From Proteobacteria bacterium UBA6915 (GTDB lineage Bacteria; Pseudomonadota; Gammaproteobacteria; UBA6915): a DNA stretch of 51,524 nt. The stretch's first letter is position 1. Every line of letters begins with the position of its first letter. The stretch spans positions 1 to 51,524 of the forward strand of contig DKAX01000097.1 of assembly GCA_002450975.1 (NCBI GenBank), in the 5' to 3' direction. The position numbers and the translations under genes are program-made. Of this stretch, positions 43,807 to 45,276 are shown one piece after another. Below the pieces are notes generated by a model, which was given only the letters and a program-made list of their open reading frames with translations, had not been told where the DNA came from and searched no databases.

Positions 43807-43881
43807 AAGTATTTTAGTCGGTGACCGGATCAGAATAGCTTGAATCTAGGCAGGCGAAACCTGCTTATCATGAGGCTGGAT

Positions 43882-45276
43882 ATGAAACCTGAATTTGAAT
43901 CAAACAATGTGTTTTATACCATACCGGTTGAGCAGTCGGAGTCCCGATTGAATCGCTGGTTCGATATGCTGTCTTCTCCAGGTGTAACCTTTGCCGGAAT
44001 GCCGGCGCCACCTTATCTGGTCTTTGGTGTTACCGGCATTACCTGCGCCATATGCGTACTCACCTTTCTTGCATTGCGCGCCGAAATTTCACTTGTTGTC
44101 GTCGCCCTGGCAAGTGTAGTCAGTATATTTGTATTCCTGCTGGGTGGCTTGCTGCGTCAATTAGTCGCGCGTGGCCCGCATATCCTAATTGAGGATTTGC
44201 TCCTGGTGCTTGGTTCGACTGCCTTGTTAGCCTGGGTGTTCGGAGTGGAAACTCTTCTTCTGTTGGACAGATTAATCATTTCTCTGGGTGTGTTCCTTGT
44301 GTTCGGTCGACTGGGTTGTCTGACATCCGGTTGTTGCCATGGAAAACCGGCATCTATTGGTGTCAAATATGACAACCGTACCTTTCCCGCAGCACTCATT
44401 GGTATACGCCTGTTTCCCATTCAACTCGTCGAGGCGATTTGGATTGCGGTGATAACAGGTTCGGCATACCAGTTGCTGGGTAGGTCTGGCGACAGTTTGT
44501 CGTTTTGGCTGATCGCCTATAGCGCCGGACGCTTTGTTTTTGAGTTTGCGCGTGGCGATGTAAAACGTAAGATTTTCGGACCATTATCAGAAGCGCAATG
44601 GTGGTGTGTGTTTATTATCGGCGGCGTGCTCGCTGTTTATTTCGTATTGGCTTCAATGCTCACGGTTGAAAGAGTCAGTCTCCTGATCGTCGTGACAACT
44701 ATTATATTTGCCTCGATGTCGCATCGCTACTGGCTGGCCATCGAGGTTTCCGGTATTCCGGAAAAGGAAATACCGGCTTGGTACAGTTTTGTCAGTGAAT
44801 TGCGCACCAGTGCGTCATCTGGCAGAAAGCCGATTCGCAGAGCGAGTCCTCAGCAGGGAATCGAGATCGAATTGGAGGTGGATGCATCTGATGCAGGATC
44901 AACACTCCACTCATACAGGATATTTTCGCAGCAATGGAGTGAGGCTATATTTGTCGCCGGCTTTCTTCTGCAATCACTACCAGAGCATCGCGTTGTACGT
45001 ATCAACTGGGAGCAAGAGGCGGTCGTGTTATGGGTTTGGGTGGCGGAACATGAGTCTGTTGCAGAATACGATAGGGAAATCTTGCATCCGCGTCACGTTA
45101 TATTGCGTGCCAGCGCTTTTGCGAACTATTTATGTATAAACGGTTTTCAGACGCGTGGCAATACGGATAGTGAAGTGGTCCAGGCGACACAAGCGGAACG
45201 TGGCGCGGAATATTTCCGTCCTCATTCACAGCTTGGTATGAACAGGGCGGTTACAACTGTGAGGAGCAAGCAATGA
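43882..45276 (+). CDS. Polytopic membrane protein with an Lgt-like (prolipoprotein diacylglyceryl transferase family) domain and a soluble C-terminal domain of about 200 aa
   Basis: Several TM helices. Lgt-family-like blocks: FGRLGCLTSGCCHGKP, LFPIQLVEAIW, AYSAGRFVFEFARGD, LSEAQWWC. The ORF-track start at 43840 is TTG; in-frame ATGs are at 43870 and 43882. Confidence 0.55.
   Translation: MKPEFESNNVFYTIPVEQSESRLNRWFDMLSSPGVTFAGMPAPPYLVFGVTGITCAICVLTFLALRAEISLVVVALASVVSIFVFLLGGLLRQLVARGPHILIEDLLLVLGSTALLAWVFGVETLLLLDRLIISLGVFLVFGRLGCLTSGCCHGKPASIGVKYDNRTFPAALIGIRLFPIQLVEAIWIAVITGSAYQLLGRSGDSLSFWLIAYSAGRFVFEFARGDVKRKIFGPLSEAQWWCVFIIGGVLAVYFVLASMLTVERVSLLIVVTTIIFASMSHRYWLAIEVSGIPEKEIPAWYSFVSELRTSASSGRKPIRRASPQQGIEIELEVDASDAGSTLHSYRIFSQQWSEAIFVAGFLLQSLPEHRVVRINWEQEAVVLWVWVAEHESVAEYDREILHPRHVILRASAFANYLCINGFQTRGNTDSEVVQATQAERGAEYFRPHSQLGMNRAVTTVRSKQ

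Follow-up and report, generated by a model that had tools for sequence, protein, structure and literature searches.

In Streptomyces coelicolor, the gene cluster of the contractile injection system (CIS) encodes a membrane protein, CisA, whose cytoplasmic domain is proposed to link the CIS to the membrane and which is absent from the purified particle (PMC12237407). In Anabaena, the thylakoid system (tCIS) is anchored to thylakoids by a transmembrane (TM) helix of Cis13 and an extension of Cis12 (PMC8894136). On the cargo side, Cgo1 and Cgo2 of AlgoCIS each consist of a disordered N-terminal domain, DUF4157 and a C-terminal domain and are loaded by the AAA+ ATPase Alg15; DUF4157 cargo sits in the tube lumen and is loaded through its disordered N-terminus by the AAA+ ATPase (bioRxiv 10.64898/2026.05.27.728243), the role of DUF4157 itself being unresolved in published work. 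Selection, staging and loading of CIS cargo are poorly understood (Geller et al. 2021; bioRxiv 10.64898/2026.05.27.728243), and pfam01790, the family of prolipoprotein diacylglyceryl transferase (Lgt), was found only twice in extracellular CIS (eCIS) operons and was not enriched there (Geller et al. 2021). Here we analyse a 51,524-nucleotide stretch of Proteobacteria bacterium UBA6915 (contig DKAX01000097.1, the whole of which we call the window), where a CIS operon contains an Lgt-family gene directly upstream of a DUF4157 cargo gene. The reading that we favour, at a probability of roughly 45%, is that its product would be, by analogy with Lgt, a cytoplasm-facing, phospholipid-dependent lipid (diacylglyceryl) transferase, accessory to one class of cargo marked by a conserved module which we refer to as effN.

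The gene had been singled out from the sequence alone as an open-reading frame (ORF) at 43840-45276 on the plus strand, of 478 amino acids (aa) if the TTG at 43840 is the start. The ORF is real, however the true start is likely the ATG at 43882, as the database version of the protein (P0001) begins there and a GAGG lies 6 nt upstream. The gene and the parts of its product are as follows.

43882..45276, plus strand: Lgt-like polytopic membrane protein, 464 aa (the TTG start of the ORF finder at 43840 is probably too far upstream)
43882..44010, plus strand: N-terminal soluble segment, aa 1-43, with a conserved NRW(L/F)D helix, predicted cytoplasmic
44011..44649, plus strand: 7-TM Lgt-fold core, aa 44-256, collinear with TM1-TM7 of E. 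coli Lgt
44305..44349, plus strand: signature motif GRLGCLTSGCCHGKP, matching E. coli residues 142-156
44518..44559, plus strand: YSAGRFVFEFARGD, matching E. coli Y235-D249, with the equivalents of Y235, R239, E243 and R246
44668..44730, plus strand: eighth TM helix (TM8), absent from canonical Lgt
44761..45156, plus strand: C-terminal alpha+beta domain, aa 294-425, predicted cytoplasmic and rare in databases

By hidden Markov model (HMM) and by fold, the protein is a member of the Lgt family. The protein exceeds the gathering threshold of the Pfam model PF01790 (59.5 bits, cut-off 24.9, E=4e-16), although only profile positions 98-237 of 240 are matched, hhalign aligns the protein to E. coli Lgt at 94% probability, and a family profile searched against the PDB recovers the E. 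coli structure 5azb at E=1.4e-11 in two collinear stretches covering TM1-TM7. Profiles were required to reach 5azb, a single-sequence phmmer search of the PDB finding nothing. An AlphaFold2 (AF2) model built on 60 homologues (predicted local distance difference test (pLDDT) 82, predicted template modelling score (pTM) 0.82) shows eight TM helices, the 43-aa N-terminal segment and the alpha+beta C-terminal domain, and its sole significant Foldseek match in the PDB is again 5azb (probability 1.0, E=2e-4, TM-score 0.55 normalised to the target, 295 columns). The sequence-only reading, which had proposed a multi-TM protein with four Lgt-like motif blocks fused to a soluble domain without a recognisable family, thus holds in each of these parts: the helices are predicted, all four blocks are present and map to Lgt signature regions, and for the C-terminal ~180 aa there is no Pfam family, no PDB profile match and no significant Foldseek match.

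The alignment with E. coli Lgt had also been proposed as a check on the catalytic residues, and here the outcome is divided. Y45 aligns to E. coli Y26; in the signature, where the two numberings coincide, R143, G145, G150 and G154 are kept; the PIQLVE block matches E. coli P197-E202 (P179, Q181 and E184 corresponding to P197, Q199 and E202), and Y213, R217, E221 and R224 correspond to Y235, R239, E243 and R246. The kept set therefore includes both members of the essential arginine pair of E. coli Lgt, R143 and R239. N146, E151 and L152 are replaced by Cys, and W153 by His; N146 and E151 are regarded as important in E. coli Lgt. Across the 60 homologues, which share 22–38% identity, G142, R143, G145, C146, C151, C152, G154, R217, R224, D226 and Q239 are invariant, and Y213 and E221 are at least 90% conserved. 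Around the position aligned to H103 of E. coli Lgt, H100 is invariant three residues upstream in the nine closest homologues, and in the wider family an HH pair sits one or two residues downstream. That catalytic positions should stay invariant at so low an identity argues for retained ligand binding or catalysis.

Membership of the family does not make this protein a housekeeping Lgt, for which the sequence-only reading had left room. Its best NCBIfam model is the Lgt equivalog NF000778, yet it scores 66.5 bits against a cut-off of 334 (E. coli Lgt, as a control, scores 377), and it has no match to TIGR00544, so that by these models it is not a housekeeping Lgt. The patchy presence of the gene among orthologous CIS loci (13/46, see below) also argues against a housekeeping role. 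The Cys signature, by contrast, is not exotic, since Clostridial 7-TM carriers of it pass the NCBI Lgt equivalog models. A 255-aa Clostridium protein with the motif passes both NF000778 (370 vs. 334) and TIGR00544 (130.6 vs. 118.9), which makes the Cys signature compatible with Lgt function as annotated, and another carrier, P0059, passes TIGR00544. By these models the Cys-motif proteins are a recognised Lgt subtype, with Cys for N146 and E151 (GRIGCFLAGCCYG), seen in Clostridium manihotivorum (L029), in P0059 and in more than 531 genomic loci, the genomic relatives sharing the pattern GC[LF]x[VAS]GCC[HY]G. The window protein appears from its sequence to derive from this subtype, being itself no Lgt equivalog, and the 7-TM subtype is probably the ancestral stock of the CIS-linked clade. 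The motif was also considered as a sign of new chemistry or of a reducing compartment, and this was rejected, as outward-facing, equivalog-passing Lgts carry the same motif. That Cys occupies N146 and E151 in a large subtype curated as genuine Lgt bears on the mechanism of Lgt and on inhibitor design.

What sets the CIS-linked proteins apart is their predicted orientation. We counted Lys plus Arg (K+R) in the loops flanking aligned helices, catalytic side minus other side, and read topology from the positive-inside rule together with domain-fusion logic. Whilst the E. coli Lgt loops carry 13 K+R on the cytoplasmic and five on the periplasmic, catalytic side, the family of the window protein carries a mean of 14.8 on the catalytic side and 3.4 on the other, with 56 of 60 sequences in agreement. 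When scored in a single alignment, 12 CIS-linked proteins reach +4 to +8 and E. coli Lgt -4, whereas 68 other Cys-motif relatives span -9 to +5 over the same columns, 65 of them at zero or below (Mann-Whitney p=4e-8). The strongest positive outlier among these (L006, +5) has the CIS-clade architecture and lies on a 10-kb contig, and two others (L030 and L061) are weakly positive at +2. Eleven further members, fetched independently by a baseplate query, all score +3 to +8. When the core region is placed in a neighbour-joining tree with E. coli Lgt as the root, all 27 flipped sequences group together to the exclusion of the rest; this clade is drawn from Cyanobacteriota, Acidobacteriota, Desulfobacterota and others, with the bias reversed in all 27.

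Fusions of a second domain point the same way. Four relatives (P0011, P0033, L122 and L151) carry a PF03692 CxxCxxCC domain at the N-terminus (200-290 aa, no signal peptide) and another (P0034) carries one at the C-terminus, which implies that both termini lie on one side of the membrane, most plausibly the cytoplasm. TM8 is present in every clade member, followed in most by a basic cluster (e.g. GRRLQKTSR), the window's own flank being weakly basic (HRYW, two K+R), and is predicted to return the C-terminal domain to the cytoplasm. Lgt reportedly has its N-terminus outside (Pailler 2012; Mao 2016); because the core is collinear with an N-out Lgt and the clade is predicted to be N-in, the clade would be inverted. 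On charge and fusion patterns we consider it probable, with good confidence, that the CIS-linked clade is turned over relative to Lgt, its catalytic pocket facing the cytoplasmic leaflet. If true, this would be a clear case in nature of a polytopic enzyme family inverting its topology, with one clade of 7-TM proteins turned over and an eighth helix added to compensate.

The protein could instead be a specialised Lgt paralogue in the usual orientation, its active site outside, which lipidates exported proteins and is placed in CIS loci for an envelope-related reason such as release; the family membership and the annotation of the nearest relatives as Lgt would suit this reading. It is nevertheless very unlikely: it would have to accommodate a charge bias reversed in every clade member and the translocation of Cys-rich, 200-290 aa N-terminal domains that have no signal peptide, the window protein fails the Lgt equivalog models, and these loci share no conserved secreted protein with a lipobox.

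For the C-terminal domain, a search of 1.84 billion representative proteins returned only ten matches, mostly the same fusion proteins. A model of the domain only (AF2, pLDDT 78) shows a helix, three strands, a helix, two strands and a helix; its best PDB E-value is 0.011, with a weak resemblance to YbjN and to the GspL/XcpY periplasmic domain which is not significant. Two giant proteins, P0062 (2534 aa) and P0063 (1528 aa), contain ~130-aa repeats including Secretin_N units, and it is through these repeats that they match the C-terminal domain (phmmer E=5e-11 and 1e-8). An identification of the domain as Secretin_N could not be confirmed, single units going unrecognised by Pfam, and is kept only as a hint. 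The CxxCxxCC domain (YkgJ-like, metal-chelating), which is absent from the window, is in some loci encoded on its own immediately upstream of the cargo genes (L166:4580-4978, L155:13899-14501, L133:6725-7849, L153:15020-15490 and L136:20890-21525), and is a candidate third part of the module.

The setting of the gene is a CIS operon on the plus strand at 21190-50034, as had been proposed from the sequence, and the following parts of it bear on the question.

21190..37346, plus strand: CIS structural genes (Pvc16_N, two sheath, three tube, VgrG-like spike, Baseplate_J, Tail_P2_I)
45273..47213, plus strand: DUF4157 (eCIS_core) cargo/toxin gene with a C-terminal DUF6310 domain, its start overlapping the Lgt-like stop
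45471..45740, plus strand: effN module, cargo aa 67-156, upstream of the DUF4157 HExxH domain
48055..50034, plus strand: AAA+ ATPase (Pvc15/Afp15-type cargo loader, the role taken from the literature)

In the window the Lgt-like gene is translationally coupled to the cargo gene, its stop codon overlapping the cargo ATG (ATGA at 45273-45276), and its product is the sole clearly hydrophobic one of the operon. The proximity recurs elsewhere. In nine of nine metagenomic contexts a DUF4157/eCIS_core gene lies within one or two genes, usually directly upstream and on the same strand. Amongst 84 loci screened with iterative HMMs seeded from the window, an eCIS_core ORF occurs within 10 kb of the Lgt-like gene in 12 of the 14 closest, but in none of the 70 distant ones. 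The carriers include an Elainellales cyanobacterium (L005, the best Lgt-like match of the window protein), Bryobacteraceae, Acidobacteriaceae, Sulfotelmatobacter, Solibacteraceae, Pyrinomonadaceae, Desulfobacterales and Desulfoluna butyratoxydans, the recurrence in CIS loci spanning Cyanobacteriota, Acidobacteriota, Desulfobacterota and Brocadia. The usual order is Tail_P2_I, two to three genes related to 37319-38650, one to three DUF4157 genes and the Lgt-like gene. In one locus (L001, ERZ25039548 contig_34171, 15789-21301) the AAA ATPase and DUF4157 are each split into several ORFs, probably through frameshift errors in a long-read assembly rather than as pseudogenes.

By fetching 80 loci independently, via the baseplate protein, and counting the 46 with at least 8 kb downstream, we determined what the gene accompanies. 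There are 27 loci with eCIS_core and 13 with the Lgt-like gene, which is always found with eCIS_core (Fisher p=2e-4), so that the co-occurrence surveyed from the Lgt side was recovered in 13 more loci. The association with effN cargo is tighter: 13 loci have both effN and the Lgt-like gene, two have effN only, none has the Lgt-like gene only and 31 have neither (Fisher p=1e-9), and within the eCIS_core-positive loci the gene is present in 13/15 with effN and 0/12 without (p=6e-6). In both exceptions (L133 and L153) the retrieved sequence stops within the array of cargo genes. Each carrier locus has a single Lgt-like gene, irrespective of how many toxin domains it encodes or of which type. In the baseplate tree the loci with the gene are partly clustered and interspersed with loci lacking both (e.g. 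L103 and L146), the window being on a separate branch, which implies that effN and the Lgt-like gene have been gained and lost together. Absence or variability in orthologous loci had been named beforehand as a point that would speak against a CIS role; the gene is indeed variable, but it tracks the effN cargo class. It looks like a cargo-specific accessory and not a core part of the CIS.

This distribution also bears on the first of the two roles that the sequence-only reading had suggested, a membrane anchor or assembly platform for the CIS. Being present in only 13 of 46 orthologous loci and following the cargo class instead of the machine argues against a general anchor or platform, and that proposal is weakened. 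A narrower form of it deserves more weight, in which the protein is a non-catalytic dock, the Lgt fold serving as a scaffold whose N- and C-terminal domains tether effN cargo or, through it, the CIS. Such a dock would draw on the protein being the only integral membrane protein of the operon, on clade-specific soluble domains of a generic alpha+beta class that could bind protein, on the precedents for membrane adaptors of cytoplasmic CIS (CisA in Streptomyces, Cis13 in Anabaena) and on the failure to identify an acceptor Cys in the effN survey. A mere scaffold, on the other hand, would not be expected to hold the Lgt catalytic and lipid-binding positions invariant at 22–38% identity, the gene is absent from 33/46 orthologous CIS loci and follows cargo type, not baseplate, and the bitopic architecture of CisA, with its cytoplasmic N-terminal CIS-binding domain, differs from the eight TM helices and enzyme-like core seen here. 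We regard the dock as the main rival, possible though unlikely.

Two further roles would use the same neighbourhood. The protein might perturb phospholipid of the inner leaflet and so release eCIS particles, a step that needs lysis and for which we noticed no lysis cassette in the window; the gene is missing from most related CIS loci, however, its specific link is to effN cargo and the protein has no holin-like features, which leaves a lysis or release factor as the least probable of the roles that we weighed. The gene adjoins toxin genes, and many eCIS toxins have no obvious immunity gene, for which spatial inactivation has been speculated (Geller et al.), so the protein could act in self-protection, sequestering or inactivating effN-type DUF4157 toxins at the producer membrane until loading. 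We consider this distinctly unlikely, as the gene stays single in each locus however many and diverse the toxin C-terminal domains are, and its presence correlates with the N-terminal effN module, which is conserved, rather than with the toxin domain. The small gene after the window cargo (47156-48055, 299 aa, no Pfam match) is a candidate of a more conventional kind and may be the immunity protein for the DUF6310 cargo. The DUF6310 domain (46830-47138) shows a D...EVK pattern reminiscent of PD-(D/E)xK nucleases, and on another contig (P0003) an eCIS_core and DUF6310 protein is followed by a DUF5953 gene.

The effN module itself is a conserved ~96-aa segment, without a Pfam model, between the disordered N-terminus and the DUF4157 HExxH domain (window, L002-L014 and L099-L157). 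Its consensus begins MRKSEFLaqLRaavCatAdaaLag....t.GCPYIe.WL..Y and ends WakTGevtGvPe. The two cysteines, present in 30 and 35 of 42 modules, co-vary, both being Cys or both Ser. The conserved effN Cys was considered as a universal lipidation site and rejected, being found in 35/42 modules, co-varying with the second Cys and standing in no lipobox, and a membrane-inserting cargo helix was likewise rejected, only 4/41 proteins reaching the TM-like threshold and nothing beyond Gly-zipper-like stretches being seen otherwise. Many effN-DUF4157 cargos do carry a Gly/Ala/Ser-rich, glycine-zipper-like hydrophobic stretch (e.g. LGAIGGMLGSIGSAIGGAV), which in the cases checked begins within about ten residues of the effN end; examples are L010:6837-9239, L139:16574-19303, L113:16459-18528 and L133:12622-14598, and the window cargo has none. 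A Cys-rich motif (QRKCxCxGxxCxxCxEE) lies near the cargo N-terminus in L002, L004, L010, L011 and L012, the window cargo reading TQRVCRGCQEE in this part (45273-45400), and it may form a zinc knuckle or serve as a site of modification; searching for homologues of the cargo N-terminus gave one match only.

The second suggested role, lipid modification of a CIS component, had been attached to two neighbouring proteins with an N-proximal Cys (37319-38650 and 38669-39628) that lacked signal peptides. A cytoplasm-facing active site, predicted from the charge bias that the sequence-only reading had not seen, would explain why signal peptides are missing. The two proteins themselves are unsupported by co-occurrence and were rejected as substrates: the first has relatives in 79/80 related loci with or without the Lgt-like gene, and no relatives of the second were detected in other loci.

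The accessory-enzyme reading given at the outset follows from one copy per locus, a distribution that tracks effN and not the machine, a constrained catalytic set and a predicted cytoplasm-facing site. Lgt takes phosphatidylglycerol as its diacylglyceryl donor; by analogy, the CIS-linked enzyme would work at the inner face of the membrane, cargo-specifically, using a membrane phospholipid to modify a cytoplasmic acceptor, most plausibly effN-type cargo recruited through the enzyme's cytoplasmic soluble domains, and this modification would precede loading of the cargo into the tube by the AAA+ ATPase. Several points weigh against it. The topology is a prediction from the positive-inside rule and fusion logic, the H103 equivalent is uncertain in the alignment, and N146 and E151 of the E. 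coli signature are replaced by Cys. Shared ancestry inflates the co-occurrence p-values, and the loci that seeded the effN HMM were themselves Lgt-linked. On the cargo side, no acceptor Cys common to all modules emerged, as the effN cysteines are missing from every copy in L005, L011, L012 and L014, nor do these cysteines stand in a lipobox context, and only four of 41 cargo proteins have a segment at the TM-like hydrophobicity threshold. A bolder version, with the odds clearly against it, is that the protein would be the first cytoplasm-facing Lgt-type lipid transferase, arisen from a periplasm-facing enzyme by whole-protein inversion, and would covalently lipidate effN-DUF4157 toxins in the producer, the lipid-anchored effectors being staged at the membrane and/or entering target cells in lipidated form.

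Elsewhere in the operon there are two sheath paralogues (22515-25334, 939 aa; 25822-27195, 457 aa) and three of the tube family (25359-25817, 27099-27845 and 27811-28488). Just upstream of it lies a low-GC stretch (16000-22000, GC content 0.39–0.44 vs. ~0.53), which contains an RlaP-family gene (17394-18188) and, directly before the first CIS gene, a GerE/LuxR-type response regulator (19897-20619). At 3374-6494 a PfkB kinase adjoins a fused sucrose-phosphate synthase/phosphatase, an arrangement suggestive of cyanobacterial DNA and in keeping with the best Lgt-like match, that of the Elainellales cyanobacterium (L005).

Within the library searched, we found no paper linking Lgt with contractile injection or DUF4157, and no report of lipidated CIS cargo or of an inverted-topology Lgt. 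Of the described membrane partners, CisA is bitopic, non-enzymatic, needed for firing and conserved with the machine, whereas the window protein has eight TM helices, is enzyme-like and tracks a cargo class. In the Anabaena tCIS, the tail-fibre and baseplate proteins themselves supply the anchor, whilst no TM segment comparable to that of Cis13 was found in the window's CIS structural genes. AlgoCIS resembles the window in cargo layout and in its AAA+ ATPase, the window cargo adding an ordered effN module, and no membrane enzyme partner has been reported for it. That the gene stands beside one cargo class in several phyla suggests that the handling of this cargo involves a membrane or lipid step not described so far. 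The conserved membrane enzyme gives a genetic handle on that process, and for some cargos programmable eCIS might depend on accessory factors of this kind.

Within the Lgt family, the window protein shares with E. coli Lgt (5azb; PF01790, TIGR00544) the 7-TM fold, Y26, R143, G154, Y235, R239, E243, R246 and PxQLxE, and differs in the extra TM8, the ~180-aa C-terminal domain, a shortened periplasmic 'head', the reversed charge bias, the failed equivalog cut-offs and its place in a CIS cargo module. With the Cys-motif 7-TM subtype (NF000778; Clostridia, Bacteroidota and others) it shares GRxGCxxxGCC[YH]G, but those proteins are ~255-265 aa, with seven TM helices, short termini and a canonical positive-inside pattern, and have CIS/DUF4157 neighbours in 0/70 cases, unlike the window clade. 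Eukaryotic DHHC protein S-acyltransferases are likewise polytopic, with a cytosol-facing, Cys/His-rich active-site loop, and lipidate cytosolic proteins. The likeness is one of analogy only, without homology, as theirs is a thioester acylation chemistry and the window Cys motif also occurs in outward-facing relatives. What appears from the sequence to be new in this Lgt-family enzyme is its architecture, its predicted orientation and its functional partner; if the lipidation proposed here is true, it would extend bacterial protein lipidation beyond exported lipoproteins to a cytoplasmic, Lgt-type reaction, and would provide a bacterial counterpart of the DHHC-type lipidation of cytosolic proteins.

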